From: Patescibacteria group bacterium
GTDB taxonomy: Bacteria; Patescibacteriota; Patescibacteriia; Buchananbacterales; UBA6539
DNA: 64,000 nt
Direction of reading: 5' to 3'
Assembly: GCA_028688055.1 (NCBI GenBank)
Contig: JAQTYZ010000002.1
Location: 4,256-68,255 of the forward strand
Shown here: positions 7,401-23,318 of the stretch, one piece after another
How the letters are laid out: each line of letters begins with the position of its first letter
Numbering within the stretch: position 1 is the stretch's first letter
The notes under the pieces: model-generated
Told to the model about the DNA's origin: nothing
The model's database searches: none
What the model saw: only the letters and a program-made list of their open reading frames with translations
Translations under genes and position numbers: made by a program

Positions 7401-8835
7401 TAGTTATGCTGGCTATTTCCAAGGCAGTACCGCCAGCGATTACGTCATTTATATCAATAATATCGGTACGACTCCGGGTATTCACGACGATTCCGGCGCC
7501 GAGTTGACCGCGGCCGGAGCCTGGAATGCTGCGCCATCGTGGAGTTGGTATAAAAATCAAACCGCCGATCAGCCCACCGATTATTTGGAAAAACTGAGAA
7601 ATTTACCGGTCCACGCCTGGCAATATAAAAATGAAGTTGTCGATGGGAGTAACCGATATCTAGGCGATTCAAACGTTCACGTTTCACCATTCTTAGACGA
7701 CTTTAATAGTGCCTTTAGCATTGGGCCGGTCAATTCCGTAAACTATCAGGACTGGATTGGTGTCACGATGGGCGCGGTCAAAGAACTGGATAGCAATGTG
7801 TTACAGGTTCAAGATTCATTAAAATCTCTGGAGAGCAAAATCGGTTTAGACCAAGCCATTAACAATCCAATAGTTAATACCCCGGTCATCACTGTAATTA
7901 ATAACCCGGATTCCGAAATCAACACCTTAGTGGTTAATCAAGCCGCCACCTTTAATGGTACGTTATATGTTGTCGGTGAGGCCGGCTTTATGCACAAAGT
8001 TACCTTTGCCGACGACATTATTGTGGGCGGCAAAATTTATGCTTCCGAAGATCAGGCCGGTACCGCTGTTGTTGACGCCAACGCGACCTCAACGGAAATC
8101 ATTTTTAATTCCGAGTATGAAACCGTGCCAAAAATTGTCGCGAGCGTCGTCGGTGAAGATGATGACATTTGGGTCAATTGGAAAATCATCGGCAAATCAA
8201 CCAAGGGCTTCCGAATCTTACTTCAGCAGCCAATGGCCACACCGATTAGTTTCGATTGGATTGCCTTGCCGGTTAAAGGTGGCACAGCCGCGCCGGTGAT
8301 AAATGATTTAATAACCTCATTGACGTCAGTCGGCGCCAATATTCCAGTTGAACTTTGGGCTCAAGCTGCCGACCCCGACACCAGCGATTCTGAATTATCA
8401 TATTCCTGGAAATTGTCACCGAATATTGGAAAAATTGACGGCCAGTCTGGTCTCGTTTACTGGACAATTCCCGCTGATCAAATGCCATCAGCCGATACTG
8501 ATGTGACCGTTACCGTGACGGTTTCTGACGGTTCCCATTCGGCAACCAAATCAGCAACCATTAAAATCCTGGTACCGGAAAATAATACCGATGTCGCCAA
8601 TGATCAGCCAGCAACAACCGACACTTCGCAAACCACTTCTGATCAACCGACCGAAACTGGAAATAACTCAACCACCACCAACCAGGCTACCGTTGCTAAT
8701 GGGTGTACCGATAATACCGCGACCAACTATGATCTAACCGCGACTGACGATGATGGTTCGTGCCAATATCCGCCGCAGCCAACCAATAACTCCGACGCTT
8801 CAACAACGTCGGCCTCAACCACCCCAAGCAATTAA
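1498..8835 (+). CDS. giant (2445 aa) secreted or anchored tail-fibre-like surface protein with repeats and a Peptidase_S74-like intramolecular chaperone motif
   Basis: N-terminal signal/TM segment. Many (V/I)GIG(T/N)T(A/S)P...L.V.G tail-fibre-type repeats. The motif VNYQDWIGVTMGAVKELDSNVLQVQDSLKSLESKIG resembles the chaperone-of-endosialidase (S74) domain. Ig-like segment with TVTVTVSD. S/T/N-rich C-terminal tail. Confidence 0.85.
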   Translation: MNWLQTKIYQAAKVTMLTSVLALVAFGLQLAKFEPTIAATGINQQLNYQGKLMTVSGVQVANTNYNFRFRIYNASSGGTVLWTERWTATSTQITTVNGVFSAALGSINALSNGSIDWNSDSLYLQVDLDADNNGSWEESFATRKRLTSTPYAFNANQVNGFSATSTAAVANNIPVFDSNLTLNLFNGGVSTTRATTTALYFVPQTTAPDSQTGKLYFDSGSNYFKFYNGLTWASLGGGGAAWELFNTDSAFITPTSSKPIYVPGASRLEMINASTTNVDTLTVYGNSIYNGLSTFTDLRTTNLNASTTANFNNLFIYGLGDFTDLRSTNLNASGTPTFANIINYGTYTGNGGLSIFSDLRPSMLNASTTNVDTLRVYNSLTVPDSSIAWSKLTGIPTSTTDQLPEGATNKYYANSLARAALSASSPISYDSGTGAFSFLYNTTNNWTGLNTFTDLRSTNLNASGTPTFANIINYGTYTGNGGLSIFSDLRPSMLNASTTNVDTLRVYNSLTVPDSSIAWSKLTGIPTSTTDQLPEGATNKYYANSLARAALSASSPISYDSGTGAFSFLYNTTNNWTGLNTFTDLRSTNLNASGTPTFANIINYGTYTGNGGLSIFSDLRLANGLNASSTANFLNVTSFGTVSSTVALNTQGTGHFGNNVTIDGKVGIGATSPLANLEIYDGTASNILGLAVRSSGIAWTSTQLHLGLYDERALAADTGPAIGFIARYTASAYTHMAAIKMGKDNATSGEYGGYLSFMTRANGVGEAERMRITSAGNIGINNTAPDAKLHVTGDAKITGNASTTGWFNIGTTNPLATLGTLIGAGDLFVGRNATITNNLTVDGTTLVVQADTNRVGIGTASPYATLDVQDTIRATRAGYDNLQYIQMTGDGAGNYLVANSQATNDKVFYIDAKSNTNPAGANNQIQFRNGYTLSTKMTIDSSGNVGINNTAPDAKLHVTGDAKITGNASTTGWFNIGTTNPLTTLGALIGAGDLFVGRNATVTSNLTVDGTTLVVQADTNYVGIDTASPLSKLHINNGASGNILSVESNASAIDEYAGLTLASKDSGGALWYGSEIRNINTAGNPSFLNPRLGFFTQDYSTYLPANRTEKMSILGNGNVGIGTVSPGNKLQVVGAMDATYPDLVGQINISSNDSAAINKGGVLSFGGNYTGTTNTSWATIYGRKENSTAGDYAGYLGFVTRAVGNTGTEKMRITSAGAVGIGNTAPDAKLHVTGDAKITGNASTTGWFNIGTTNPLATLGTLIGAGDLFVGRNATVTNSFIVDAGTLFVDSGNNYVGIGTTAPDAGLTVNGSIDSILPSTNRHYYNVADYNYTAGAIVGTTIITLPKYGSSTMLQIKISGYDYSSGRGAWEIIIGGYNYSTHDWYNTSVEYKGTPPFTQVRLANNGTNDLILLGTTATSWAYPKVVVTDVMTGHSNLNNWGTGWSITNTATEPTLFNVTTLTPKMFIDTAGKVGIGNTAPASLLTLGTAGTTAGSLSLAGATSGVITLATAAAAGTYTLTLPTSAGSLNQVLTTNGSGTLSWSTGPSTQAWQKYTGLAYPTDIITPTTTNASIFISGNATTTGNITITQAANPAGNLAFSAANPVIKASSYITVPGGMYVSGGTLYAQNSLKARGGIADDQNTYLTLAGGTSGYSYFSGNVGIGQTAPAAWLEINGGATTNDLFKIATTSNSAIVFVDKSGNFGIGTTTFFNSPENGNPKLVVDGGLTGDGGIMLNSAQGRSAYLEFANGAKSEWYISSRNTLMAGDNHQLNFDTYVNGGPTNVLSLMQSGNIGFGTTSPIYNTVTHLSSSAANPNDRRANWTRVDLSGSISSNISNYGQYIYLSNTGGATGGLIANSYYGGKSEVINSGATTPTDASWGPALANYGYYGHAQSTGTANAGSGGSNNRSNYGVYGLADGNTNGSTSNYGVYGDASTGDLNYGVYARTWGAAGQTGYGLYAMDNASAGTSYAGYFQGSTASDYVIYINNIGTTPGIHDDSGAELTAAGAWNAAPSWSWYKNQTADQPTDYLEKLRNLPVHAWQYKNEVVDGSNRYLGDSNVHVSPFLDDFNSAFSIGPVNSVNYQDWIGVTMGAVKELDSNVLQVQDSLKSLESKIGLDQAINNPIVNTPVITVINNPDSEINTLVVNQAATFNGTLYVVGEAGFMHKVTFADDIIVGGKIYASEDQAGTAVVDANATSTEIIFNSEYETVPKIVASVVGEDDDIWVNWKIIGKSTKGFRILLQQPMATPISFDWIALPVKGGTAAPVINDLITSLTSVGANIPVELWAQAADPDTSDSELSYSWKLSPNIGKIDGQSGLVYWTIPADQMPSADTDVTVTVTVSDGSHSATKSATIKILVPENNTDVANDQPATTDTSQTTSDQPTETGNNSTTTNQATVANGCTDNTATNYDLTATDDDGSCQYPPQPTNNSDASTTSASTTPSN
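2461..3355 (+). repeat. perfect 390-bp (130-aa) tandem repeat, ~2.3 copies, inside the giant gene
   Basis: Identical blocks start at 2461, 2851 and 3241. The third copy diverges at ~3355. The encoded unit is FTDLRSTNLNASGTPTF...NTTNNWTGLNT. Confidence 0.9.
3838..5330 (+). repeat. three dispersed near-identical ~200-bp modules inside the giant gene
   Basis: Copies at ~3838-4060, 4327-4555 and 5161-5330. Each encodes NNTAPDAKLHVTGDAKITGNASTTGWFNIGTTNPL.TLG.LIGAGDLFVGRNAT with only a few nucleotide differences. Confidence 0.85.
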
Positions 8836-8842
8836 CTGAACA

Positions 8843-11299
8843 ATGTTAATGTTTGTTTTCCTAAAAAAATTGTTAGCCCAAATTGAAGACCTGCCAATCA
8901 AGCCCTGGCAACTATTGGCCTGGTGGTATTTTATTACTATTATCAGAACCCTCCTTGAAGCTTTCACCGACAGTGGGGGGCATTTAAGCGGCTTCCAGCC
9001 ATTTTTTCTTCAATATCCTGCCTACTACGCCGTGGCCTTCATGGGCATAATTATTATTTTAAAATTAATTACCAATGAAAAAATAGAAAAAATCGCCAAA
9101 GTCTTTTTTCTTTTTTCTTTCTTTATTTTTATTGGCCCAACTGTTGACGCGTTGTTATCAGCCTCAAATAATATAAGCTACATCAGCGTTGACAACTGGC
9201 CACTGATATTAAAATCGTATCTCACCATTGGCCTGGGTGGTATTTTTTTCCAAGGGACCACTAGTGGTATCAAATTCGAATTAATATTTGCCCTGCTATC
9301 AATTTTTCTTTACCTGAAATTGAAAGGTGTCACAATTATAAAATCACTGCTTGGCATTAGTAGCATCTATTTTTTTATTATTTCAACTTTTTTAATCACC
9401 ACCTACATTAAATTTTTTTATCTCTATTTTGGGCTTACCTTTAATTTTACCTCCCAATTTATTGGTTTATTTTGGACCATAATAACTACCATCAATACTT
9501 TAATATTTTTTTATTTATGGGATAAGACTAAATTAAAAAACTGGTTTTATGGCCTCGACTGGTTTCGTACGACCTTGGTCTGGCTGGTGATGACGTGGGG
9601 GATCGTTATCTATTTCAACCAAAGGTTCGACCCAGCACTTTGGCAATCTGATTGGCCAGCCGTCATTCTAAAAATGCTCGCCGTGACGATGGTCGGTTTT
9701 CTCATTTGGCAAATTATTAGACTAATCAACGATTTTGTCGATTTTGACTTTGATCATTATTCACAGTCGCCCAATTTATTAAACCAACTGCCAAAATCAG
9801 ATTTAATTACCGTCCTAATATTTTATTTAATTTTCTTTTTATTTTTGGCGCTGCAAATAAATTATACTTTTTTTGTCCTGCTGTTAATCTATATCCTCAT
9901 CGGCTATTTTTACAGCTGTAAACCAATATTTTTAAAACGCCATTTTATTTCAACCGCGGTTGCTTTAAGCCTAAATTATCTCCTCGCTTTTTGGGCCGGC
10001 TATGCGGCTTTTTTTACCACCGCTGACTCCCTAAATTTAGTGCCAAGAAACATCAGCCTGCTAATATTTCTCACCTTTGTCGCCGTGATCGGTTTTAAAG
10101 ACGTCAAAGATGAATTAAGTGACAAGCAACAAGGAGTAGTCACCTTGGTCACTCGCTACGGAGTTAATTGGGCCGCCAAAATTATTAGCTTAATGATTAT
10201 TTTAGTAATTCTTTTGGGCGGCTGGCTGTGGCACAGTTGGCCCTTATTAATCTTCGCGTTAATTGCCTTCGCCGCCGCTTATTATTTGACTAACGGTTTT
10301 ACAATTTTTAAAAATAAAATTGCGTTGGCTATTACTCTAATTTTATTTTCAATTGCCGCGCCCATCGTCGTTAGTTTTAATAAACCACTTCAAGCCTCAA
10401 TTGGTGCCATCAATTTAAAAAATGACGCCGGTTGGCATCCAACGGCCAATCAAGAAGCGTGGGATATTTCAAGCCTCTTAACCGATCAAAACGGCGATCG
10501 CTACTTTTTTTCCCAGAACTACTCGCTGTTAAACGGATCAACTCTAACTTTAATTGATTTACAGACTAAACAATATTACAAAGAATATTTTCCTGATGAG
10601 GGTTTCACGGCCATTACTAAAAATATCTTAGCAATCAACCAATATATTCCGGGCTACCATGGCAGCAATGTGTTTTATGACAATAACCGCGGCCCTTATA
10701 TTTTAAAAACCTATTTTGCCGATGGTTTACTTGAATTGACTGCCAAGGAAAAATCTAATGGCAATTTAATGGCGGCCACACCTAATGGCGTACTGAGTTT
10801 AAAAAATGGGGGAATGATTAATCAGTATTCACAACCAAATTTGGTAGCCAAAGGCCGCTTAATTTTTACCGGCCAAAAAATTATTAACATTTCTGGCCCA
10901 TTTTGGTTAGAACATCGTTGGGGTAATTTTACCGCTGACTGGCGCCAATTAAATTTAATCACCATTAATCTCGACGATGAGACAAAAATAATGATTGCTT
11001 ACCTGGGTTATGACAACGGCAGCCTGGCTTACGGTGGCCTTTTAAAAAATAACGAACTACAAAATTTTAGTCAGCTAACAATCCGGGTCGATCAAGACTG
11101 GCAAAGTCCAACCACCAACCAAAAGTGGCCAATCAAATTGAATTTAGCCAATCGCAATATTAATCTCGAGCTAGAAGCCATTTTACCAAATCAAGAAGCT
11201 CCCCAAAATACTTGGTCGGGACCAATGACGGTAACAGGCGAAGTTAATGGACAGCCAGTTGCTGGTTGGGCAAATTTTAGTGAGCTACGCCCCGACTAA
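8843..11299 (+). CDS. polytopic membrane protein: UbiA-like prenyltransferase core fused to a ~300-aa C-terminal soluble domain
   Basis: More than 12 hydrophobic segments. FKDVKDELSDKQQG is an Asp-rich motif like the second UbiA motif. The C-terminal domain (WLEHRWGNF...) is possibly CrtC/AttH lipocalin-like. Confidence 0.5.
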   Translation: MLMFVFLKKLLAQIEDLPIKPWQLLAWWYFITIIRTLLEAFTDSGGHLSGFQPFFLQYPAYYAVAFMGIIIILKLITNEKIEKIAKVFFLFSFFIFIGPTVDALLSASNNISYISVDNWPLILKSYLTIGLGGIFFQGTTSGIKFELIFALLSIFLYLKLKGVTIIKSLLGISSIYFFIISTFLITTYIKFFYLYFGLTFNFTSQFIGLFWTIITTINTLIFFYLWDKTKLKNWFYGLDWFRTTLVWLVMTWGIVIYFNQRFDPALWQSDWPAVILKMLAVTMVGFLIWQIIRLINDFVDFDFDHYSQSPNLLNQLPKSDLITVLIFYLIFFLFLALQINYTFFVLLLIYILIGYFYSCKPIFLKRHFISTAVALSLNYLLAFWAGYAAFFTTADSLNLVPRNISLLIFLTFVAVIGFKDVKDELSDKQQGVVTLVTRYGVNWAAKIISLMIILVILLGGWLWHSWPLLIFALIAFAAAYYLTNGFTIFKNKIALAITLILFSIAAPIVVSFNKPLQASIGAINLKNDAGWHPTANQEAWDISSLLTDQNGDRYFFSQNYSLLNGSTLTLIDLQTKQYYKEYFPDEGFTAITKNILAINQYIPGYHGSNVFYDNNRGPYILKTYFADGLLELTAKEKSNGNLMAATPNGVLSLKNGGMINQYSQPNLVAKGRLIFTGQKIINISGPFWLEHRWGNFTADWRQLNLITINLDDETKIMIAYLGYDNGSLAYGGLLKNNELQNFSQLTIRVDQDWQSPTTNQKWPIKLNLANRNINLELEAILPNQEAPQNTWSGPMTVTGEVNGQPVAGWANFSELRPD

Positions 11300-11657
11300 A
11301 TTAGGGTCAAAACTTTACTAATTACAGTACTGATAAACAGTAATTTATTTATTTTAATGACCATATTTGAAAACAAAAAAATAAACAAAATTCAGTCCCA
11401 AGACCTTGTCCAGCCCATTCAAACAACTGCAATTGCTTTTGTGGTAATTACGACTTGTCGCGACTAAATTTAAAAACTGTTTTAATAGTGGAAACTTTTT
11501 ATATCAGCTTCGACTGTCAAACCAAACAAGAAATTATTACTAAATATTCTATATCAATATATTATTTCTTTCATACTACTGTCTTGCGGCTATAAACTTC
11601 TTTATACCGGTGACAGAAATTATGTTTATAAGGTGAAATAACTTATAAAAAATAAAT

Positions 11658-12629
11658 ATGCCAGCCAAAGAACCGTTATATTTTTTTCTTCACATTCCTA
11701 AAACCGGCGGAACAACAATTAATCAAGCACTGGCCTCAACCTATAAAAATGGCGAGTTCATTTTTTTACCATCAAATATTTTAGACGAAAAAGCAAGCAG
11801 AAAATCCATTAAAAATTATTTACTAAACATTCCAGTGGCTAAAAAAAATCTAATTAAAGTGATTGCTGGTCATGATGTTTATTACGGTTTACATAATATT
11901 TTTCCCAACCGCGAACCACGCTATATTGCTTGTTTTCGCCACCCAGTTGATTTAACAATATCTAGCTACAATTATTATTTAACCATTACTAATAAAAAAG
12001 ACTGCAATCCAACAAATATTGCAAAACAACCCATTAATGATATTAAAATACTAAATTTTCAAGACGTCTTAACAAAGTATGAGGAACTCCATAATTTAAC
12101 TTTTAAATTTCTCGCTGATCGCCTGCTCGATAATAAACGTTTAAATAAACACCTAAATCTAAAGGATGTAGACTATATTAATACAAAAAATAATGATTTT
12201 ATTTTAAAAAAAATTAAAAATATATTGTCGCATTTTTATTTTTTAGGTATAACGGAAAAATCGCAAGATGATTTTTTATTTATTGCTGATAAATTTGGCA
12301 TAACTAAGTACATGCCAAAAGATAATATTTCAACAAAATTTTTTAATCTTAGCACCAATCCAACAATTAAAAATGCCATCGAACAATATAATCTCTTAGA
12401 TCAAAATTTATACGACTATGCAGTGCAAGTTAATAATAGTTATAAAAAAAATAATCAAAATTTTAATTTAAGGGTGAAAAAAATAAATAATATGTTTACT
12501 CTGGGGTTGATTATGGATATGTTTAAAATAACGCATTATCCTCAAAATATCTATCGCTTTTCTGATTGGCTCAAACAAAAATCTAACTTGTATAAAAAAA
12601 TATTAGCATACTTTAAAAATTTACATTAA
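11658..12629 (+). CDS. sulfotransferase family protein
   Basis: N-terminal FFLHIPKTGGTT is a PAPS 5'-phosphosulfate-binding-loop motif of Sulfotransfer_2/3 families. Very AT-rich gene. Confidence 0.65.
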   Translation: MPAKEPLYFFLHIPKTGGTTINQALASTYKNGEFIFLPSNILDEKASRKSIKNYLLNIPVAKKNLIKVIAGHDVYYGLHNIFPNREPRYIACFRHPVDLTISSYNYYLTITNKKDCNPTNIAKQPINDIKILNFQDVLTKYEELHNLTFKFLADRLLDNKRLNKHLNLKDVDYINTKNNDFILKKIKNILSHFYFLGITEKSQDDFLFIADKFGITKYMPKDNISTKFFNLSTNPTIKNAIEQYNLLDQNLYDYAVQVNNSYKKNNQNFNLRVKKINNMFTLGLIMDMFKITHYPQNIYRFSDWLKQKSNLYKKILAYFKNLH

Positions 12630-13336
12630 TGATTTTTGACTAGACGTAAATTATTTTTTACCTCCAATGTCATTTCTCGTATTGTTTTTATTTCAAAATT
12701 TTCTATCAGTAATAATTCATATATTTTTTTCAAATACTCACTTGGCCAAGGACAATATCCTTCATTATCGAGGCCATGTGCTCTCAAAATTAACCAACTA
12801 TTAGCTGGCAGCTGGCTTATTTTTTTCAAGGCCTTTTCTATTGTTAATCTGCCCTCAAATGGGTCAAAAGAAATCAGTTCTAAAAGGTCAATTTTTTCTA
12901 ATGAATTATAAATATATTTACCATCACATAGTCTGATAGAGTCGTAGGGTGGATTGTCTGGAGATTTAATGCCGTAAGGCATAGCCAATGAATAAGGACC
13001 AGGATGAAACTGTTGGATATATTTTAACGATTCAATATAACCGTCTGGGCCATCACTGCTTGGCCCAGCATGGCAGACAGTATGAGAACTTATTTCATGA
13101 CCTAGATTAGACAGCTTCTTCCATTGCTCAAAGTCTCCGTGATCTAAGCCGATATTACATTTGTCATTAATCTTTATAGGATTTGGTTTTAGCCATCCAG
13201 TCACAATATAAAATATTGCTTTATTGGGATAGATAATGTCGTTTACTTTATTGGCGCTATTTATAAGGCCATCATCAAAGGTAAATGACACGTAACGATT
13301 AATTATCTTTTTGGGTTTGTAAAAAAAATTAAACAT
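12626..13336 (-). CDS. polysaccharide deacetylase (CE4/NodB-homology domain)
   Basis: TFDDG and HTVCH motifs. Confidence 0.65.
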   Translation of the reverse strand: MFNFFYKPKKIINRYVSFTFDDGLINSANKVNDIIYPNKAIFYIVTGWLKPNPIKINDKCNIGLDHGDFEQWKKLSNLGHEISSHTVCHAGPSSDGPDGYIESLKYIQQFHPGPYSLAMPYGIKSPDNPPYDSIRLCDGKYIYNSLEKIDLLELISFDPFEGRLTIEKALKKISQLPANSWLILRAHGLDNEGYCPWPSEYLKKIYELLLIENFEIKTIREMTLEVKNNLRLVKNH

Positions 13337-13342
13337 AAGTTA

Positions 13343-14353
13343 TTACAGGATATTTTGCAAGTATTTTAATTGTCTATAAAGTTTAATTTTTGTTCCTACC
13401 AGTAATGAGATGTCACCTTTCAGGAAAAAGATCAATTCTAATGGTAAAAAAAACAGTTCTTTCAAGATAAATACCATATCATAAAATGGCAAATCAACGC
13501 CTAGGTTTCTTTTTAGGGTACATTCAGACAAATAAGATAAATTATACATTTTTACGGATGATTTAATGCTTTTTTGATTATAGCTTCCATTAAATTCTCG
13601 ATGGGTATCTGGAACTCGGTGGTGTTTAATTGATACTTGATCTATGAAGTATGGGAAGTGCGGCCAGAGAGTTTCAATTTGCCGAATCAGATCAGTATCA
13701 TCGTGAGAAAAAATAATTTGCTGGTTGAAGTGGACGTAGTCAAAAATCTTTTTTTTGATTGACAAATTCCCGGCCGCTATTGTTCCTGCAATTGGCTGAT
13801 TAGTGACTAAGTTTTGTTTAAGAACTGTGTCATATATTTGCCCCTGACCTAAAAAGAAACTGCCATTAGCATATTTATGATAAAGGCGACTTAGCCATTC
13901 AGGATCAACTTCACAATCATCATCAATAAAAATTAAGAGTTCTCCGGTAGCCATTTTGATTCCTTTATTCCGGCCAGCGGATATGCTTATTATTTTCTCC
14001 TGAAAAACTTTTAATAATTTATTATTTTGGGCATATTGTTGTAAATATATATAAGTTCCATCATTTGAATTATTATCAATAATAATTATTTCATAAGGTA
14101 AGGTATCAAATTGAAGATGTTCTAGGCTGGCCAAAGCATATTTTTTAAGGGCATTCAGACGATTTCTAGTGGTGATTATAATTGAAATCTTATTAATTTG
14201 ATCTCCAATAATTTCAGTGGTGGTTTTTTTTATTATATCGACGGGTAATGTTTTTTTATTATATTTTTTATTCAATCCCTCATATATTTTAAATGGAAAA
14301 TAATAAATATAATTCTTTATTTTTTTTGGCATCAATTGCAACAGATACTTCAT
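13343..14353 (-). CDS. family 2 glycosyltransferase
   Basis: ISIIITTRNR...IIIDNNSNDGT...IFIDDDC (GT-A fold with DxD). Confidence 0.75.
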   Translation of the reverse strand: MKYLLQLMPKKIKNYIYYFPFKIYEGLNKKYNKKTLPVDIIKKTTTEIIGDQINKISIIITTRNRLNALKKYALASLEHLQFDTLPYEIIIIDNNSNDGTYIYLQQYAQNNKLLKVFQEKIISISAGRNKGIKMATGELLIFIDDDCEVDPEWLSRLYHKYANGSFFLGQGQIYDTVLKQNLVTNQPIAGTIAAGNLSIKKKIFDYVHFNQQIIFSHDDTDLIRQIETLWPHFPYFIDQVSIKHHRVPDTHREFNGSYNQKSIKSSVKMYNLSYLSECTLKRNLGVDLPFYDMVFILKELFFLPLELIFFLKGDISLLVGTKIKLYRQLKYLQNIL

Positions 14354-15369
14354 GATTTTTGGCTTAATTTAAATATTTCTTTGTCTGATATTTTTCTCGT
14401 TGCCTGGATGTTTTTTCTCAACTTCAAAGTCTTTGATAAATTATGTAAATTCCAATAAAAAGCCATGAACGGGATGGGCAAAAATTTAATTCGTTTGATA
14501 AAATAATTTTTGTTTTTGAATAATGGCACTAGCTTGCCATTCTCTATTTTTCTATTTAATAAATATCCGCCAGGATATAGGATAAAATAATCCAATATAA
14601 TAATCGGCAGCGCTTTAACGATATTTTTAAATTCGTAATTTTTTAAAATTGTATAAAGTGAATTTCGACGACAAAGATATATTTTTTTAAACTGATAATT
14701 GCCCCAGGTAGCACTACCTTTATGATAAACTACGGCACTAGGCTCAAAGATAATCTTATAACCCAATAAATTTGCCCGGTAACCCCAATCCAAATCTTCA
14801 AAATATGAATAATAGTTTTCATCTAGTAACCCGACATTTCGAAATGACTCCCTTTTTATTAGTGTGGACCCCCAACAGCTTGCCAAGATATCTTTCTGAA
14901 AATTATTTACCTCCGCTTTGTTCCGATTGAAATTTATATCCAGCCCATAACCAGAAAAAGTAAATCTTCCACCCTGGCTATTGATTATGTTCGGATGATC
15001 ATAAAAGAGCATATTAGAGGCCACGGCTACTATCTTCCCATCAGATTTAATAGCGGTTACAAGATTTTTCAGCCAAGCCTTATCAACCCTAATATCATTA
15101 TTTAAAATAGCTATATAATCAGGATTATATTTATCCAAAGAATAATTAATCCCATAATTTACCACCTTAGCAAAGCCCAAATTATTTTTTAAAGCTACAA
15201 CCTCTATTGCGGGAAATTTATTTTTTATAAAAACAATACTACCATCTGTCGAACAATCATCTATTACTATAATTTTTATATTGTGATAAGTTTGGCTTAT
15301 TAAAGAAGACAGGCATTCTTGAAGATGGCCTTCCCCATTAAAATTAACTACTAGAACAATAGTTTCCAT
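14350..15369 (-). CDS. family 2 glycosyltransferase
   Basis: VLVVNFN...VIDDCSTDGS, GT2 signature. 4-bp overlap with the downstream GT2. Confidence 0.75.
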   Translation of the reverse strand: METIVLVVNFNGEGHLQECLSSLISQTYHNIKIIVIDDCSTDGSIVFIKNKFPAIEVVALKNNLGFAKVVNYGINYSLDKYNPDYIAILNNDIRVDKAWLKNLVTAIKSDGKIVAVASNMLFYDHPNIINSQGGRFTFSGYGLDINFNRNKAEVNNFQKDILASCWGSTLIKRESFRNVGLLDENYYSYFEDLDWGYRANLLGYKIIFEPSAVVYHKGSATWGNYQFKKIYLCRRNSLYTILKNYEFKNIVKALPIIILDYFILYPGGYLLNRKIENGKLVPLFKNKNYFIKRIKFLPIPFMAFYWNLHNLSKTLKLRKNIQATRKISDKEIFKLSQKS

Positions 15370-15371
15370 AG

Positions 15372-16106
15372 TTAGATATCATAATTTTTTACCATGCCAT
15401 CTAATCTTTTTATTTCAAAACCGACGCGTTGGCATTTATTGCCACAATTGGGACAAGACTCTCCTTCCAAAATCGTACCTACATCTCCAGTGCGAAATCC
15501 CTCTGGATAATGATTGGAATAAAATATCAATTCATTATTTAGCGAATCGACCTCAAACTTGCCTGATTCGGTAAAAACATGGTAACCACATGACAAATCA
15601 TCACAAGTTGTCCAGGCGACTCTCGCTTCAGTGAAACCATAGGTAGCATAAATTATTGTTCCTGGGCAGAGCATCCTTGATTCTTGAATAAATTTATTGT
15701 TGATGCCATTAGCTCCGATAATTAATTTCATCCGACTGAGATCGACATTATTTTCTTTGGCTAGGTTTAATGTCTTAAGAATGTAACCGGGCAGGCCGGC
15801 AATCATTTCCGGTGGAAATGATTTCATGATATTTATGGTTTTTTCTGATGTCACATGTTTGCCGCCACCGGTGTTTATTGTTAGAGAGCCGGTTATTTCT
15901 CCATACATGGCACCTAAATAATACCCCAGGTGAGGGGCAAAAGGTAATAAATTATAATAAACTCCGGCTTGCTTGTGGATCATCGAAAATCTAGAAATAC
16001 ATTTTTCCATGTTGATTTTGTCTTCCATGGTGTAAATTATCGGCTTAGCGCTTTTACCGGATGTTCCCGAACTGAAGAGAAGGAGAATGGGAGTGTTATT
16101 TTTCAT
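15372..16106 (-). CDS. adenylate-forming enzyme fragment (PaaK/CapK-like), N-terminally truncated
   Basis: The AMP-binding P-loop SSGTSGKSAKP lies at residue 12 rather than ~90-100, and there is no room upstream. C-terminal CPNCGNKC. Confidence 0.45.
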   Translation of the reverse strand: MKNNTPILLLFSSGTSGKSAKPIIYTMEDKINMEKCISRFSMIHKQAGVYYNLLPFAPHLGYYLGAMYGEITGSLTINTGGGKHVTSEKTINIMKSFPPEMIAGLPGYILKTLNLAKENNVDLSRMKLIIGANGINNKFIQESRMLCPGTIIYATYGFTEARVAWTTCDDLSCGYHVFTESGKFEVDSLNNELIFYSNHYPEGFRTGDVGTILEGESCPNCGNKCQRVGFEIKRLDGMVKNYDI

Positions 16107-16113
16107 ATGTTTC

Positions 16114-16863
16114 TTATTTATGAAATACTAATAATAAATATTTTCGGTTATCATCGGCGTATATTTTTTTAGAAAATGACCAATTTTTTAAGTATTTTTT
16201 ACTATTTAAATCTTTGGCTAGATTAATTGCAAAATCAGTTGTAGGAATGATATTTTTTGTTAGATCCTGCTTTTCAATAAGTACATATTTATTTTGACTT
16301 AATATTTTTATTAATTTAACTTCAGTATTCTTTAGTGGTACACCCTCCTTATCAAATTCATCAAGAATTATTAGACTACTATGTTCTTTTAAGCAACTTA
16401 CTATATTTGATATAGCTAATTCAGTATTTATAAAATATTGGTATGATTCTATTAAAACCGCAAGATCAAATTTTTTATCAATTTTTAAATTTTCTGCCGA
16501 AGTAAGAAGAAATGATACTTTGGGATTATGTTTTTTACCATACTTGATAAAATTTTGGTCAGGCACCACACAAAGACAATGGTAATTTTTATTCATAAAT
16601 TGTCTGGCCATACTGCCGATTCCACCGCCAACATCAATAATATCTTTTGTATCTACTGGAATTTTATCAATTACTAGTTTTGATAGATTTTCTTGAGCGT
16701 CAATTATGCTATCATTTTTGTTTTTGTAATAACCATAATGTATATGTTTCCAACCAAAAACTTTTAAAAAAGTAAAATGGGCCGACAAAAAATCCTTCTC
16801 CTTAATAATTTTAATTCTGAGATATATTATTTTTATTTTATAAATTATTTTTGAATAACACAT
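16114..16863 (-). CDS. class I SAM-dependent methyltransferase
   Basis: DVGGGIGSMA motif I and an acidic motif II. Confidence 0.65.
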   Translation of the reverse strand: MCYSKIIYKIKIIYLRIKIIKEKDFLSAHFTFLKVFGWKHIHYGYYKNKNDSIIDAQENLSKLVIDKIPVDTKDIIDVGGGIGSMARQFMNKNYHCLCVVPDQNFIKYGKKHNPKVSFLLTSAENLKIDKKFDLAVLIESYQYFINTELAISNIVSCLKEHSSLIILDEFDKEGVPLKNTEVKLIKILSQNKYVLIEKQDLTKNIIPTTDFAINLAKDLNSKKYLKNWSFSKKIYADDNRKYLLLVFHK

Positions 16864-16866
16864 ATT

Positions 16867-18969
16867 TTATATTAATAAACTCCAATCGGCATCAATACAT
16901 GTTAAATATAAATCGTCAGTTTCAATTGGGTAGCAAGAGTCATTATAAGTAAAATAAATCTCCCTTCCTTTATAATAGTTTCTCAAATGTAAAATTTTCA
17001 ATAGCCTCATATCAGTTGTAACTAATCTTAATTTTCTCACCCCCAATTTTTGGCAAAAATATTCAATGGCTAAAAATATACTAGCATTAATATATTCATT
17101 TAAAATCAGTATATCGGAAATAACAGCATTAGTTTCATTTTTCTCTAATGAAAAATAACCGATTATTTTGCTGCTTTTTTTAACAATAAATAAGTCCATT
17201 TTTTTTGGGGAATCTATTATTCTCCATTTTATAAATTCCCAATTTCGAACTACCCCAACATTAATTTCAGTTTTTTTACGTTCCCAAAGGCTGTTTATTT
17301 CTTTTTCACCTTCATCGGCACTAACTTTTTCGATAGTTAATTCACTCTGAATGATTTTCTCATTAAAGTTTAATATTTTAGGCCAACATAACCAGTATAA
17401 TCTTTTTTCAAGGAGATTAGATTTGATGGTTTTATTTGCTTGATGGGCGCCAGCAGCTGGAACCACTCTGCCATATACAGAATTCATTTTTTTATTGACA
17501 AACCCCCATGGCAAAAAATTACCTTGATCAATAAGCATACTAAAACAACTTTTAATAAACCCCTGATCTCGATATTGTTTTTCTATCCCCACCTCAGCAA
17601 TTTGATGAATAATTTGCTCCTTTGAATAGTATTTGATTTTGTGGCGTAAAACAGCAAATTGTCCGATTATTTCTTTTGTGCTATTCTCAGCAACAAGTAT
17701 CATTGAGCCCATTGGACAGTTCTTATATTTCCAAATCCATTTAGCATAATCCGTGGGATCAAAAATTTTATTGATAATATTGATCAGCCCCGCTTCATCG
17801 CCAGCTTGGTATGGCCTTATTTTGTAAAGGAGTTTTTCTAATTGTTGTTGGTTGTCAGCCATTTTTTTTGTGGCGAATGGCAACTGTTTTAATTTTTTAT
17901 AAAGCCATGGCGAATATTTTTTCAAAAAAATTCCAACGAGTCCCAACAACCTATCGATCAAAATTTTACTATTAATCCACATCGAAGCAGGCTGTTTGAA
18001 TTTCAATAAAAAATAATATAAATCCGGAGATAGTTTTTTTAGAGCAAGACCCCACCAACCAATAAATCGATCAATAAGCCATTTTGGGCAGGAGAATATT
18101 ATTTGCCTAATTAAATGATGATGATATTTTTTCAATTCTTCGTCACTCCAAACAAATTGAGCTGATGGACGGTTATTTAAATTAATTTGGTCAGCTTTGC
18201 TTAAGTTATCTTTCCATGTATTGTAAATTGATTGGCAATAATAAATTGGTTTTTGATAAGAAATAAAATGCACCATAATTGATTTTAGCTTTTTTGGTTC
18301 TATGTAATAATTCTTTAATTGATTATAATTCAGACAGTAGATAGGTGATAAATTATCCCACTCGTTGGCAAAATATAAACTCAGGATAAATTCGTCAATG
18401 TTACCAATATGATTTTGGTATTTAATTAGGAGAGATTTTAAATCATCAAATGTTTTGTGTGTTATGATTTCAGTATTGATAACAAGGAAGTTACAGCAAG
18501 GTATTGGCAAGTTGAGATTATATTTTTTCAGATTAGTTTGTTGGAATTTATTATTAAGCTCGTAAAATCTTAAAAAATGTTTCAATTTAACCTGCCAGAA
18601 GAAATACCGAATACCCGTTGCGGCTATTTTATTTGTGTCTAATAAATTATCTAATGAGGCAGTTACTATCAAGTCAGCATCCAGAAAAATTATTTTATCC
18701 CATTGCTTGAATTCTGATGTAAATAAATAGAGTTTACTCAATATGACTGCCGGCCAGCGCCCAACTAATTTTTCTGCCAATGGTTCGCATTTTTTGATTA
18801 AGATGCCTTTGTCTCTAAACCATTTCAAATCTTCTTCCGGCACTTCATGAGCTAACAGCATATAATCGCCTTGCCAACCAGAATTAAAATAAACACTGCT
18901 AAATAATTGCTTAGCAAAGTCTAAATATTTTTTATCGGCTAGAGTGACAAGAAGATTTTTTTTATTCAT
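16867..18969 (-). CDS. GT8-like nucleotide-sugar transferase fused to a C-terminal GNAT-like domain (700 aa)
   Basis: N-terminal LVTLADKKY...IIFLDADLIV (GT8/glycogenin-like DxD). Middle amphipathic repeats. C-terminal VGIEKQYRDQGFIKS is GNAT motif-A-like. Confidence 0.5.
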   Translation of the reverse strand: MNKKNLLVTLADKKYLDFAKQLFSSVYFNSGWQGDYMLLAHEVPEEDLKWFRDKGILIKKCEPLAEKLVGRWPAVILSKLYLFTSEFKQWDKIIFLDADLIVTASLDNLLDTNKIAATGIRYFFWQVKLKHFLRFYELNNKFQQTNLKKYNLNLPIPCCNFLVINTEIITHKTFDDLKSLLIKYQNHIGNIDEFILSLYFANEWDNLSPIYCLNYNQLKNYYIEPKKLKSIMVHFISYQKPIYYCQSIYNTWKDNLSKADQINLNNRPSAQFVWSDEELKKYHHHLIRQIIFSCPKWLIDRFIGWWGLALKKLSPDLYYFLLKFKQPASMWINSKILIDRLLGLVGIFLKKYSPWLYKKLKQLPFATKKMADNQQQLEKLLYKIRPYQAGDEAGLINIINKIFDPTDYAKWIWKYKNCPMGSMILVAENSTKEIIGQFAVLRHKIKYYSKEQIIHQIAEVGIEKQYRDQGFIKSCFSMLIDQGNFLPWGFVNKKMNSVYGRVVPAAGAHQANKTIKSNLLEKRLYWLCWPKILNFNEKIIQSELTIEKVSADEGEKEINSLWERKKTEINVGVVRNWEFIKWRIIDSPKKMDLFIVKKSSKIIGYFSLEKNETNAVISDILILNEYINASIFLAIEYFCQKLGVRKLRLVTTDMRLLKILHLRNYYKGREIYFTYNDSCYPIETDDLYLTCIDADWSLLI

Positions 18970-18970
18970 T
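18668..18970 (-). repeat. 303-bp perfect direct repeat, copy A (5' end of the GT8 paralog)
   Basis: Identical to 19668..19970 at an offset of exactly 1000 bp. Confidence 0.9.
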
Positions 18971-19969
18971 TTTTATTAATTTTTTTAAAAAGTAGTATGA
19001 TTTTGGATAATCTTTTTTAAGCCAAATACCAGTTAATCCGATTAAGAAGTCGAGTGACTCAATCAGCCGATATAACATCGCATAAGGAATAAAAAATACT
19101 CTTCGCATTTTTAACAGTAATTCGTATTTTTTTATTTCAAAATGACCCCAAATCTTGGTTGGCGGCAGGCGCAAGCTTAAATTAATTTCATCAGCACGAT
19201 CAAGGTTGTAGCGCCATATCTTATAAAAATAGGGGTGATAATCAATCGGTTTCTGGCAATTGAAAAAATTAATAATGATTGCCCTCGTTTTTTGTGGTTT
19301 TAGACAATTATATTTGATTAAGCTGAAAACATTAAGACAATAGAGCGGTGATATTATTTGTAGTTGTTTAATAAAATATAAAGTTAAGATCATTTCTTCA
19401 AGTGCTCCAAAAATAGTTTGATATTTATCTGCCAATTCTTTCAACCCAGTAAATGTATTTTTTTTTATAATAGTGGTGGAAAAGACGAAAACTCCACCAC
19501 TTAACATGAGGGAATTCAAGTCGTAAAGTTTTTCGCCTTCGCGCCTTATTTTTTTGTCAGCCTTATAAAAAAGATGTTTGAGACGGGATTTTTGCAGATA
19601 CAAGCTGTAGTTTGTAAAGCCAGCTATATTTTTAACTTCAAGTAAGTCATCTAGTGAAGCACAAACAATCAAGTCAGCATCCAGAAAAATTATTTTATCC
19701 CATTGCTTGAATTCTGATGTAAATAAATAGAGTTTACTCAATATGACTGCCGGCCAGCGCCCAACTAATTTTTCTGCCAATGGTTCGCATTTTTTGATTA
19801 AGATGCCTTTGTCTCTAAACCATTTCAAATCTTCTTCCGGCACTTCATGAGCTAACAGCATATAATCGCCTTGCCAACCAGAATTAAAATAAACACTGCT
19901 AAATAATTGCTTAGCAAAGTCTAAATATTTTTTATCGGCTAGAGTGACAAGAAGATTTTTTTTATTCAT
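18962..19969 (-). CDS. GT8-like nucleotide-sugar transferase; paralog of the upstream gene without the GNAT part
   Basis: The first ~100 aa are identical to the 700-aa protein. The same DxD motif is present (FLDADLIV). Confidence 0.5.
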   Translation of the reverse strand: MNKKNLLVTLADKKYLDFAKQLFSSVYFNSGWQGDYMLLAHEVPEEDLKWFRDKGILIKKCEPLAEKLVGRWPAVILSKLYLFTSEFKQWDKIIFLDADLIVCASLDDLLEVKNIAGFTNYSLYLQKSRLKHLFYKADKKIRREGEKLYDLNSLMLSGGVFVFSTTIIKKNTFTGLKELADKYQTIFGALEEMILTLYFIKQLQIISPLYCLNVFSLIKYNCLKPQKTRAIIINFFNCQKPIDYHPYFYKIWRYNLDRADEINLSLRLPPTKIWGHFEIKKYELLLKMRRVFFIPYAMLYRLIESLDFLIGLTGIWLKKDYPKSYYFLKKLIKNE

Positions 19970-19970
19970 T
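19668..19970 (-). repeat. 303-bp perfect direct repeat, copy B
   Basis: Identical to 18668..18970. Confidence 0.9.
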
Positions 19971-20285
19971 TACTCCGTTAAATACTTATTTTGCAATAAT
20001 AATCTTAAAGACGGGGTCTAGCTCACCAAACCAGGAATCCGTATGATAATTAATTATTGGTAGGAATATCTCGAAACTACCAATCATTTTTGGGCCAATT
20101 GTAACATCAACAAAAAAATCAACGGCCGGGCCTGGTAATACCGGATCGGGAAGCTTGAGTCTTAGGCCGTCATACAAGCGGTCTCTTAACTCACAACCAT
20201 CTTAAAGAAGTTAAAAGTTAGGACCAATATTGTTCATTTTAAAGGAAAAGTTTACTTTTTGTCCAACCTTAAATATAGAAGGTGT

Positions 20286-21374
20286 TTAGGATGATGCCTT
20301 TATCTTTTCCTTTATTTTATCAATAAAAATCTTAGTATCAAATTTTCTAGCTTGCTTAATGCATTCTTCTCTATATTTTTCCGGACTTAAACCAATATTC
20401 CTTACTGCCTCTACTATTTTGTATTCATCGATATTGTCAATCAATTTTCCCGTCACCCCGTCAATCATTGTTTCACGATAGCCCCCTTCATTCGGAGCAA
20501 TAACCGGTTTACCCGATGCCATTGCCTCCAAAGGTGCCAAACCAAAATCCTCTTGATACGAAGTTGTAATAAATCCCTTGCAAGTTGCGTAAAGTTTAAT
20601 TAAGTCTTGATCACTAACCCAACTAATTATTTCAACATTATTTGGTTTTAAGTTTTGAATTTTTTTTAGGTATTGCTTAAAGTGTTTTGATTGTTCATAA
20701 CTGCCGACGATGACTAACTTTTCAGTTGGTAACCTGCGAAATGCTGCCAGTTGTATTTCAATCCTCTTGTAACCCACCAAACGATTAACCGAAAGCCAAA
20801 AATCACCGTTGTTTTCATACTGATATTTAGTGGTGTCAATCGGCGGATAAATCACGCTGGACTCACGATGAAAGTATTGTTCAATTCGCTTTTGTACCGT
20901 GGCCGAAATCGCTACAATTTTATTAACCGATCTAACGTCACGCCGATTACCGGCTCGCCTTAATTGGACCCAAACGTCAAATATCCAACGGGCATACCAG
21001 GGTACAATATTATTGCGGGTATCTGAATAAAGATCCCAAATCTCTCGAAGCGGCGAATAAACATACCACAAATTCGGCCGATTATGGACTGCCGCGCTCA
21101 TCGCCCAATCACCGGCAATAATGTAAAAATCATAGGCCGTTTTTAAATTCAAGCGCCGAAATTTCCAATAAGCTGCTTCTTGCTTAAATGGAGCATTAAT
21201 GGGTATTTTGCCAATACTATAAATATTATTCGTCGCAAACCCCATTTGCCTTATCTTGGCGTGGTCAATATTTGTGGTATAAATATCTGCTCCAAGCTCT
21301 TTGGCCAACATTAAATCTACCAGCTCCGCGCCACCAATGTTGTCCATAAAATTATGAAAAATTACAACTTTCAT
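20286..21374 (-). CDS. family 4 (GT-B) glycosyltransferase
   Basis: EDFGLAPLEAMASGKPVIA is the EX7E motif. Confidence 0.8.
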   Translation of the reverse strand: MKVVIFHNFMDNIGGAELVDLMLAKELGADIYTTNIDHAKIRQMGFATNNIYSIGKIPINAPFKQEAAYWKFRRLNLKTAYDFYIIAGDWAMSAAVHNRPNLWYVYSPLREIWDLYSDTRNNIVPWYARWIFDVWVQLRRAGNRRDVRSVNKIVAISATVQKRIEQYFHRESSVIYPPIDTTKYQYENNGDFWLSVNRLVGYKRIEIQLAAFRRLPTEKLVIVGSYEQSKHFKQYLKKIQNLKPNNVEIISWVSDQDLIKLYATCKGFITTSYQEDFGLAPLEAMASGKPVIAPNEGGYRETMIDGVTGKLIDNIDEYKIVEAVRNIGLSPEKYREECIKQARKFDTKIFIDKIKEKIKASS

Positions 21375-21383
21375 TAATTTAGA

Positions 21384-23318
21384 TTATTTAGCCTCAACAT
21401 TAATTGAAACTTTCAAAGAATCCCCAAACCAACCGATGCTTTCTTGAAACATTCTCAGTTCGGTTTCATAGACGCCACGGAAAGAGCCACGATATCTTGT
21501 GATTATTCTAAACTCATACTCTTCACCGGGCAGTATTTTTTTTTCCACTCTTTTAAACGTCTGCCCAGACACATCCCGTAATTCAAAATTTAAGGCCGGC
21601 AACCAGGCTGTTGTTCCGCTGTTCTTAATCGTAACCGTCAACGTCCTCGCCTCACCAACTGTCGTTGCTTGAGGGATATCACTACTAACAATTTTTGCAT
21701 CAAAATAATTCTGTTTTACCAAATAGCCAGAATTATTGCGATAAACAATATTAGCCAAATCATAATACTTTTCCTGATTTAACTCTTGGAAATTAGTAAT
21801 CCCGACAATCGGGTCTTTGATGTAATCATTAAATTCGCCACTAATTTTTAGGTCATTATTGGTCACAATGTATAAATGCTTAGCGTGTGGTGGAAATAGC
21901 ATCGCCTGATAAGCCTCAATCTCGACGATTGATGATGACACCGAATAGCCTTGATCGTTTGCCCAGTCAACTAGCTCGCGCACTTCATTAGGAATATATC
22001 TAATGTTACTACGAACGTCATAAAAGGGCGTGCCAAAAAAGTCCGTTTTAAAAATAAAAATCGACGGGTAGGCAAAAGTTGCACTAACCACAAAAAAAAT
22101 GATCAATGGCAATCTGATAATTTTTATTTTATCAATTGCCCAGACCAAACCTTGAGCGGCTAATATACTCATCGGGGAAAAAATAAACTCCAGCGTTCTA
22201 AATGGGTCAAAGGGGATATCCCGTAAATTATGCACCAAATAAAAATGGTAAAGTGCTACTCCCCATAAAACGGGAAAATATAAACACGCCAAAACTAAAT
22301 TATTAGTAATCCGATCGCGACTGACAAAAAATCCAACCATAATCAAAAAACCAAGCACCATAAATTGAACCCAAATTTGTGGCGGGTAGGCTATTGGCAA
22401 AATATTATATACGACCGCTCGAAAAAAAATCAGCAGTGTCGCCACCAGCACTATTACCAAAGCCGGAGATTTTATCCGATTAAGATTAAGCCATTGTTTG
22501 ATGACATTAAGCTTTAAAAAAATAAGAATGATTGTCGACGCACCAACCAACAGAAAAAATGGATTCACGCTTAAAATCTCTTGCAACAAAAAAATGCCAC
22601 GCCTAAAAAATAACGCCCAATAAACCAATGAGATAAACGTCACCCCACCAATTGTCAACCAAGCCACCAAAGCCTTTTTTTTATCATCAATAAAAACCAT
22701 AGTGTACATCATAATCCATCCAATGATAAACAACGCCGACCCATAATGGGACATAATCATTAATATAAATATGGCCATTAACCTTAACCAGCGACCAACA
22801 GTCAATGAAACCGACGGACCTGAACCGAAATACTGGTCAAATAAATAGATCACCAACGGGAAAAAAAACAGTCCCATTGTTTCCCTGATTGGCTGAGCGC
22901 TCCAGTAAATGTGAGGGATGAAAATGGCTATTAAAAAAAGTGCCCACAGGCTAATCTGGTTTGAAAAATATTTTTTTGAAAACAAATAAAAAAATAGTAA
23001 CCCCAAACAGGCGAAGACCTGCGGTACAAATAAATAAATTTTTAGAAGCTCAAAATCAGACAAGACGTAAAGACCATACACCAAAATATGTAATACCGGG
23101 AATGCACCATAATCAAAATAACTGCCATACAGATGGATTTGTCCAAAATCGGACAAATATTTAACCTGCGTAAAATCACGCATTCCCTCATCGGCAAACG
23201 GGATATCATACCCCAACAAATATGGCAAAACTCGAACCACGTAGGCAACAAATAAAATCGCCGCCACGCAAAGCTTTTCATTTCTAAAAAATGGGCTGAT
23301 TTTATTAAGGTAAATCAT
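21384..23318 (-). CDS. polytopic membrane protein (GT-C-like) with a C-terminal beta-sandwich domain
   Basis: About 12 TM segments followed by a ~180-aa soluble tail (TLTVTIKNSGTTAW). Confidence 0.45.
   Translation of the reverse strand: MIYLNKISPFFRNEKLCVAAILFVAYVVRVLPYLLGYDIPFADEGMRDFTQVKYLSDFGQIHLYGSYFDYGAFPVLHILVYGLYVLSDFELLKIYLFVPQVFACLGLLFFYLFSKKYFSNQISLWALFLIAIFIPHIYWSAQPIRETMGLFFFPLVIYLFDQYFGSGPSVSLTVGRWLRLMAIFILMIMSHYGSALFIIGWIMMYTMVFIDDKKKALVAWLTIGGVTFISLVYWALFFRRGIFLLQEILSVNPFFLLVGASTIILIFLKLNVIKQWLNLNRIKSPALVIVLVATLLIFFRAVVYNILPIAYPPQIWVQFMVLGFLIMVGFFVSRDRITNNLVLACLYFPVLWGVALYHFYLVHNLRDIPFDPFRTLEFIFSPMSILAAQGLVWAIDKIKIIRLPLIIFFVVSATFAYPSIFIFKTDFFGTPFYDVRSNIRYIPNEVRELVDWANDQGYSVSSSIVEIEAYQAMLFPPHAKHLYIVTNNDLKISGEFNDYIKDPIVGITNFQELNQEKYYDLANIVYRNNSGYLVKQNYFDAKIVSSDIPQATTVGEARTLTVTIKNSGTTAWLPALNFELRDVSGQTFKRVEKKILPGEEYEFRIITRYRGSFRGVYETELRMFQESIGWFGDSLKVSINVEAK

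Follow-up and report, generated by a model that had tools for sequence, protein, structure and literature searches.

Probable gene conversion of a donor-binding half-domain between tandem GT8 glycosyltransferase genes in a Patescibacteria glycan cluster

Tandem glycosyltransferase genes can share long stretches of sequence. In the lgt locus of Neisseria, lgtA and lgtD, and likewise lgtB and lgtE, have near-identical segments; recombination between such paralogs can remove the genes that lie between them and alter the glycan, homopolymer tracts in the 5' coding regions give phase variation, and the variation has been demonstrated experimentally. The deletion in strain 15253 is reported to have arisen by recombination. 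Of five genes, this strain has lgtA and lgtE alone (PMC2192810). A similar arrangement occurs in a 64,000-nucleotide (nt) stretch of DNA from an uncultured Patescibacteria group bacterium (the window: contig JAQTYZ010000002.1 of assembly GCA_028688055.1, positions 4,256 to 68,255), where two adjacent genes for glycosyltransferases of family GT8, one short and one long, have identical 5' ends. The likeness to lgt lies in the tandem glycosyltransferase paralogs with near-identical stretches of DNA. The lgt enzymes belong to GT2 and GT25 rather than GT8, the organism differs, and at this locus the footprint of conversion is all that is seen. Also unlike lgt, the homogenised tract corresponds to a predicted donor-binding half-domain, and in relatives it is repeated in up to seven modules.

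The short gene is the upstream member of the pair (18962..19969, minus strand) and encodes 335 amino acids (aa). The long gene follows it (16867..18969, minus strand) and encodes 700 aa, with a double-GNAT (tandem GNAT) acyltransferase-like domain after the GT8 domain. A base-by-base self-comparison of the pair at an offset of 1000 gives a single perfect run of 304 nt, in which 18668-18971 equals 19668-19971, and similarity decays afterwards. The original prediction had proposed this comparison, and its nucleotide-perfect 5' segment of 303 bp, repeated at an offset of 1000 bp and followed by divergence, was borne out at one nucleotide more. Each copy runs from 2 nt 5' of the ATG to the second base of codon 101, so that the block covers 2 nt of upstream sequence and codons 1-101 of the short gene (copy 1, 19668..19971, minus strand) and of the long gene (copy 2, 18668..18971, minus strand). 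Beyond it, ∼45 nt remain at ∼70% identity before similarity drops to the level of old paralogs. The exact spacing of 1000 nt has no special meaning, since it is the 1008 nt of the short gene minus the 8 nt by which the two genes overlap (ATGAATAA). By its sequence and the secondary structure of the model, the block product comprises β1-β4 of a GT-A fold and the DxD motif (D97-A-D99), in other words the nucleotide-sugar-binding half.

The whole is best explained, with a probability of about 0.8, by recent gene conversion between old tandem GT8 paralogs in a cell-surface glycan cluster. The evidence comes from a codon comparison, in which both window genes were aligned with their counterparts from other metagenomic loci. 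Between lineages, the first 101 codons have 76-92% protein identity and 72-79% DNA identity; in the block, third-position identity is 0.40-0.59, the proportion of differing synonymous sites (pS) is 0.67-0.96 and that of differing nonsynonymous sites (pN) is 0.06-0.17. Outside the block, the protein identity of the GT8 domain between lineages is 35-54%. The block protein is therefore conserved through strong purifying selection, which leaves synonymous sites saturated. In the window pair, pS is ∼0 inside the block; outside it, pS is 0.77 and protein identity 38%. Because synonymous differences are absent inside and saturated outside, the 5' part appears to have been recently overwritten, as gene conversion does. 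Chance does not account for the identity, because selection alone keeps ∼79% of nucleotides between lineages and 0.79^304 is ∼1e-31. The original prediction had left the choice between recent duplication and gene conversion: the near-zero pS inside the block favours the second, and the 38% identity and saturation outside it speak against a fresh duplication.

The same layout recurs in another lineage and another assembly (locus L002, whose long protein is 43% identical), again with the short gene followed by the long one. In L002 the two 5' blocks have 2 mismatches over 240 nt; from there to about nt 370 the differences fall mostly at third positions, and beyond that the two sequences are unrelated. 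Their identity extends 21 nt upstream of the ATG. Block identity is thus 100% within the window and 94-99% within L002, and falls to 79% of nucleotides between the window and L002. The 3' halves behave in the opposite way, by a small margin: short with short gives 42% and long with long 46% between the window and L002, against 38-41% between the paralogs within a genome. The short types of the two loci also share an asparagine signature, described below. Since this signature is common to both and the 3' halves have their closer orthologs in the other lineage, the duplication is placed before the split of the lineages and the homogenisation after it.

When GTDB genomes were scanned with the block, 38 loci came up, spread over Patescibacteria, DPANN archaea, Bacteroidales, Smithella and others, and many of these loci are arrays of three to seven modules at a pitch of ∼1 kb. 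Block identity within a locus is at least 0.94 in the window, in L002, in L007, in an archaeon (L012) and in a member of the Saccharibacteria (L014), the last two at 0.94-1.00. L007 (the same locus as L023) lies at 10001-21400 of a 594-kb Staskawiczbacteria contig (CAVXIE010000002.1) and has seven GT8 modules, all of which share a 171-nt block at 168-171 of 171 nt; several of its proteins, 633-700 aa long, are double GT8 enzymes. Between its modules at 11039 and 13139, identity is complete over ∼340 nt, of which 60 nt lie upstream. The homogenised tracts of L007, L012 and L014 range from 171 to 347 nt. Nine control arrays (L004, L013, L015, L017, L020, L025, L036, L038 and L047) are not homogenised and have identities of 0.57-0.75, so selection alone does not yield identity. 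Together with the 72-79% DNA identity between lineages, these arrays rule out selection alone as its cause.

Gene conversion between tandem paralogs is already well known, as is the remodelling of glycan loci by recombination between glycosyltransferase paralogs. What is less ordinary here is that the converted tract coincides with a structural half-domain, and that homogenisation extends to as many as seven modules in some genomes of the candidate phyla radiation (CPR) and DPANN archaea and is absent from other arrays of the subfamily. A literature search turned up no publication about gene conversion among glycosyltransferases of Patescibacteria. With their near-identical block of 170-300 nt, the arrays of as many as seven GT8 modules offer a clean natural case of concerted evolution of a half-domain, with blocks homogenised in some small-genome lineages and not in others.

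Base composition differs between the arrays. The G+C fraction (GC) of block nt 12-183 compared with the rest of the modules is 0.50 vs 0.33 in L007 and 0.42 vs 0.26 in L012, and the window block has no such excess (0.34 vs 0.31). The GC-rich blocks of L007 and L012, the two most homogenised arrays, hint at gene conversion with a GC bias. A distinct and very conserved GT8 subfamily is marked by its N-terminal 100 aa (LVTLADK...GWQGDYM). Protein identity in this N-terminal block is 51-73% between Patescibacteria and DPANN archaea (Woesearchaeota, Pacearchaeota and Nanoarchaeota; loci L011, L012, L019, L021, L024 and L032-L047), and the block is found too in Bacteroidales, Smithella, Verrucomicrobiota and Cloacimonadota. 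To judge by these sequences, the spread of the subfamily points to cross-domain transfer.

In the proposed mechanism, non-reciprocal homologous recombination would have replaced the first ∼304 nt of one gene with those of the other. Very strong purifying selection on the block across the subfamily would keep the paralogs similar enough to recombine there, while the acceptor-side halves would be too diverged to do so. It is most likely, from the shared half-domain and the diverged 3' parts, that the two GT8 enzymes share a donor sugar and differ in their acceptors. A GGAG Shine-Dalgarno sequence lies 4 nt 5' of the ATG of the short gene. The two genes look co-transcribed and translationally coupled, the coupling being suggested by the 8-nt overlap and by a long gene that has no Shine-Dalgarno sequence. 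A promoter scan found fewer sites than in shuffled sequences and was not used as evidence. Hardly any work exists on the surface glycans of Patescibacteria and DPANN archaea, though these organisms live attached to other cells, and the locus supplies a concrete, testable enzyme pair: two GT8 transferases forced to share one donor-binding half.

That both proteins are GT8-like, as originally proposed, is confirmed by PF01501 scores of 34.6 bits (long) and 36.7 bits (short), above the cutoff of 24.3, with profile positions 4-248 of 253 covered. The long protein consists of the GT8 domain (aa 1-∼260), helix motifs (aa ∼276-361), a disordered linker (aa 363-378) and the double GNAT (aa ∼380-700). 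In the full-length AlphaFold model (mean predicted local distance difference test score, pLDDT, 81), residues 1-260 form a GT-A domain, and the D97-A-D99 motif, present in both proteins and near-invariant in relatives, follows directly after the strand E90-96 (β4). A GT-A fold with a DxD after β4 is also the likeness to the GT8 enzymes of the LgtC/glycogenin type. Foldseek matches the GT8 part of the long protein to GlyE of Streptococcus pneumoniae (5gvv, E 2.5e-11) and to Klebsiella WbbM (6u4b, E 5e-11). Bifunctional glycosyltransferases such as WbbM are known, and the likeness to these two extends to the combination of a GT8 domain with an extra domain and to the setting in a glycan cluster. 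Identity to the window GT8 is only 15-17%, and the C-terminal helix motif and the double-GNAT partner are features of the window that characterised GT8 enzymes lack. Sequence searches gave no match to the PDB for the short GT8 and no NCBIfam match for either GT8 protein. The full architecture of GT8 plus double GNAT is rare, with four other proteins (41-56% identity) among 5.8 billion.

In LgtC and glycogenin, the histidine of the C-terminal H-x(n)-KP(W) motif is the third metal ligand. At this site the long protein reads VHFISYQKP, with the histidine, and the short protein INFFNCQKP, with an asparagine (window 19267-19275, aa ∼232-234); most other modules have HF. The short-type ortholog in L002 has the same asparagine. 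Because it is kept in two lineages, the substitution is read from these sequences as a functional variant, not decay.

Among the other explanations, the one that fares best makes the pair a contingency locus. It holds that the 5' blocks are kept as recombination handles, and that RecA-mediated deletion, amplification and swapping of acceptor-specific GT8 cassettes, together with slippage in a run of eight adenines (A8) at codons 3-5, vary the surface glycan at high frequency among the cells of a population; we consider it unlikely. The arrays of modules that are common in this GT8 subfamily and the varied length of the homogenised tracts fit such a locus, although many arrays of the subfamily show no homogenisation, and ordinary passive gene conversion explains the data. 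Recombination between the blocks would remove exactly the short gene and place the long gene behind the ribosome-binding site of the short one. In L006, a GT4 ortholog (57% identical at the C-terminus) directly abuts the long gene and the short gene is missing, as a block-to-block deletion predicts. To judge from the gene order, such a deletion is plausible, but L006 may simply retain the ancestral state. A frameshift in the long gene, with A7 instead of A8 in the poly-A tract after the start, is identical in two samples (L004:3580-3610 and L005:2713-2743), and the window has A8 tracts at the same site (18957-18964 and 19957-19964). The frameshift may reflect phase variation, loss of the gene as a pseudogene or an error of sequencing, and A8 tracts, which encode Lys-Lys-Asn, are expected in a gene of 30% GC. 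The layout of L006 and the shift in the A-tract are hints of a contingency locus, not evidence for one. No deletion or amplification variant of the window locus was observed; a scan of metagenome contigs found no match to the predicted 1000-nt deletion junction, which runs from the sequence upstream of the short gene through the block into that specific to the long gene, and none to the wild-type control junction either, the population being absent, so that the scan is uninformative. Equally doubtful is the general form of this idea, in which, in the reduced genomes of CPR bacteria and DPANN archaea, the ultra-conserved 5' donor-binding block of this GT8 subfamily is a built-in recombination handle, acceptor-specific cassettes are deleted, amplified or swapped, poly-A slippage serves as an off-switch, and the window repeat is one such switch. 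If it were true, a single locus would supply a changing set of surface glycans for encounters with hosts and phages. Cassette deletion or swapping driven by the blocks would also give these organisms, for which few other systems of variation are known, a simple way to vary their glycans.

It is very unlikely that the identity comes from assembly or consensus building, with one true GT8 gene, or two with differing 5' parts, and the identity or the tandem itself made by the assembler or polisher. The source is a metagenome-assembled genome (MAG), from which NCBI lists the long protein as a glycosyltransferase, a 304-nt exact repeat is hard for short-read assemblers, and no independent assembly of the same population was found; look-ups of both window proteins by exact sequence returned no record. 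Several contigs of relatives break in the block (L001, L003 and L046; L010 ends 47 nt into the second copy). Assemblies of homogenised GT8 loci tend to break because the repeated blocks are near-identical, and contig ends inside the block are the expected effect of a genuine repeat on short-read assemblies. Both window reading frames are intact and in frame, and identity decays gradually into homologous, diverged sequence. The same tandem layout stands in the independent L002, with its 2 mismatches, and a near-identical block is shared by the seven modules of L007. The short-type gene has its own ortholog with the diagnostic asparagine, and the clean 8-nt stop/start overlap is unlike the product of a mis-join. 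Two contigs of one MAG (SO_2017_GW1_162) carry the same short-GT8 locus, one at the end of a 922-kb contig (L010:10001-11010) and one on a 9-kb contig (L026/L001), and both end in the repeated block. Their identity is only ∼92.6%, and therefore either the bin mixes two strains or the small contig is mis-binned.

A 1-kb unit duplicated in tandem not long ago, with very fast divergence of its 3' part thereafter, would fit a direct repeat exactly one gene length apart and the 21 identical nt upstream of the ATG in L002, which resemble a whole-unit copy, but this course of events is highly improbable and is ruled out by the saturated synonymous sites of the 3' halves, since one duplication cannot give both ages, and by the closer counterparts of each 3' half, and the shared Asn/His signature, in the other lineage.

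The double-GNAT domain of the long protein (16870..17830, minus strand; aa ∼380-700) was delimited with AlphaFold, Foldseek and relatives. A model of residues 369-700, built with five homologs, contains two consecutive GNAT folds (pLDDT 85, predicted TM-score 0.83). Foldseek searches of the PDB with this model return N-myristoyltransferases and the Eis-like 2hv2 and 2ozg with a probability of 1.00 (E 5e-14 to 3e-12). The model superposes on Eis-like proteins with TM-scores of 0.62-0.65 and root-mean-square deviations of 4.0-4.6 Å, at 10-15% identity. Two GNAT folds per chain are the likeness to the Eis type (2hv2, 2ozg, 3n7z) and to N-myristoyltransferase; mycothiol synthase (MshD) is likewise a double-GNAT acyltransferase. 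Acetyltransf_9 (PF13527) is the best family signal, with sub-threshold GNAT matches in five of six family members. Eis has an SCP2-like third domain (∼400 aa in all), which the window double GNAT lacks (320 aa), and fusion of the latter to a glycosyltransferase in a glycan cluster makes a sugar a likelier acceptor than a protein or an aminoglycoside. FemAB/aminoacyl-tRNA transferase as first choice for the domain was set aside, the top fold and sequence signals being of the Eis/N-myristoyltransferase type. PDB sequence searches with the double-GNAT region, as a single sequence or as a profile, gave nothing meaningful.

A profile search of 1.84 billion proteins with the domain collected 3590 representatives (1007 with E<=1e-10), the majority being stand-alone proteins 310-370 aa long. 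Several of these relatives exceed the Acetyltransf_9 cutoff (P0025 with 33 bits, P0053 with 53 and P0058 with 70). Elsewhere the module is fused to GT4 (P0031) and GT2 (P0095) enzymes, and its closest stand-alone copy (P0024, 37% identical) is flanked by a GT4 gene and by GT2/deacetylase genes, with an ABC-2 transporter as a neighbour. Also out of the ordinary is the double-GNAT partner, which is uncharacterised and promiscuously fused to GT8, GT4 and GT2 enzymes. Because these three glycosyltransferase families are unrelated, the fusions are good evidence for a putative glycan-modifying enzyme that acts on a glycan, and it probably acylates the glycan built by the adjoining transferases. The C-terminal acetyltransferase-like domain of the original prediction therefore stands on fold and transitive homology, and not on a direct Pfam pass.

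The loop of GNAT enzymes that binds the pyrophosphate of coenzyme A (CoA), R/Q-x-x-G-x-G/A after β4, has the form R-x-x-G in the Eis type, and YRDQGF at the corresponding site of the window protein parallels it; the R, Q and F are invariant, but the glycine is not kept across the family. The domain may bind CoA, as judged from its model. The N-terminal GNAT half would probably bind acyl-CoA, and the second half would shape the acceptor pocket, as in Eis, MshD and N-myristoyltransferase.

Between the two enzymatic parts lies a helical segment (17887..18142, minus strand; aa ∼276-361), identified by motif alignment, hydrophobic moment and model, with two copies of the motif LIDRxxGxxGxxLKKxSPxLY (about aa 298-318 and 341-361). 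The short protein has one copy at its C-terminus and other long proteins have one; only the window protein and P0003 have the second. The model places helices at 276-313, 315-323, 335-352 and 354-361, with low pLDDT. Of the extra amphipathic repeat helices described originally, the duplicated motif is real, and the amphipathicity is only moderate (hydrophobic moment, μH, 0.47). The segment is proposed from the model to be an interfacial membrane anchor: helices at the membrane interface and a flexible linker would join the GT8 to the double GNAT.

The GT8 pair belongs to a run of co-oriented glycan genes: a GT2 gene, genes for two large membrane proteins, a GT4 gene, the two GT8 genes, and genes for a methyltransferase, a 244-aa AMP-binding-like protein, two GT2 enzymes and a NodB-type deacetylase. 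The GT4 gene (20286..21374, minus strand; PF00534, 109.9 bits) is 5' of the short GT8 gene. Downstream of the pair is a same-strand, low-GC module of five genes (12626..16863, minus strand), assigned by Pfam and by the gene order of L003: the methyltransferase (16114-16863), the AMP-binding-like protein (15372-16106), two GT2 genes (14350-15369 and 13343-14353) and the NodB-type polysaccharide deacetylase (12626-13336; PF01522), all on the minus strand. The stretch from the GT8 pair through the deacetylase, at 12-20 kb, has a GC of ∼0.30 (0.29-0.32), compared with 0.41-0.49 in its flanks, and the downstream gene order is the same in L003, from Buchananbacteria. Low GC and this conserved order suggest a horizontally acquired glycan module. 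In the loci compared, the double-GNAT module is always beside GT2 genes and in most of them beside a NodB-type deacetylase (the window, L003, L004, L006 and L008). L004 also encodes an AMP-binding enzyme and a carrier protein, besides a phosphopantetheinyl transferase and a PlsC-type acyltransferase.

In the synthesis of Nod factors, the deacetylase NodB exposes an amine that the acyltransferase NodA re-acylates. The likeness to this system is that a NodB-family deacetylase, GT2 enzymes and an acyltransferase are encoded together, to which L004 adds an acyl-activating enzyme and a carrier. The window acyltransferase is a double GNAT, not a NodA fold, and one distant relative has a faint NodA match; the resemblance is an analogy and not membership. 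The acyl target might be the amine freed by the NodB-type deacetylase of the cluster, which is the most speculative step of the proposal, and in clusters of the L004 type the AMP-binding enzyme and carrier protein may supply the acyl donor.

Several points weigh against the reading of the locus as a converted pair of GT8 enzymes with an acyltransferase partner. Assembly or polishing may have slightly over-homogenised the block, which would turn 'perfect' into 'nearly perfect' and leave the conclusion unchanged. Without the canonical third metal ligand, the short paralog may be altered in activity or inactive. The window protein scores 20-21.8 bits against Acetyltransf_9, below the cutoff of 25 (E 2e-4 to 7e-4), and a Pfam search gave no PF00583 match in the long protein. 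The glycine of the CoA loop is K or N in P0002, P0004, P0005 and P0024 (YRNQKF in others). By the module in L001 there is no recognisable NodB deacetylase, only a faint PIG-L match (E 0.075). The donor sugar, acceptor, acyl donor and acylation site are suggested by fold and neighbourhood.

Smaller observations concern the rest of the window. Scans for tRNA genes and Rfam families found nothing in it, and a plasmid collection held no similar DNA. The AMP-binding-like protein covers only profile positions 160-330 of 384; its length of 244 aa and its position are kept in L003, which marks it as a conserved mini-protein rather than a fragment. Like the neighbouring methyltransferase, it has weak NCBIfam matches, the models being DVU_1553 and DVU_1556. 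The 316-nt spacer between the GT4 gene and the short GT8 gene (19970-20285) contains a GC-rich piece at ∼20110-20170 and a 63-aa open reading frame (ORF) with a TTG start, which is probably spurious; the spacer is not present in the relatives L010 and L006. On the plus strand, a 2445-aa ORF (1498-8835) has no Pfam match at E<=0.001, and the 818-aa protein encoded after it (8843-11299) has UbiA prenyltransferase and lipocalin-like domains.

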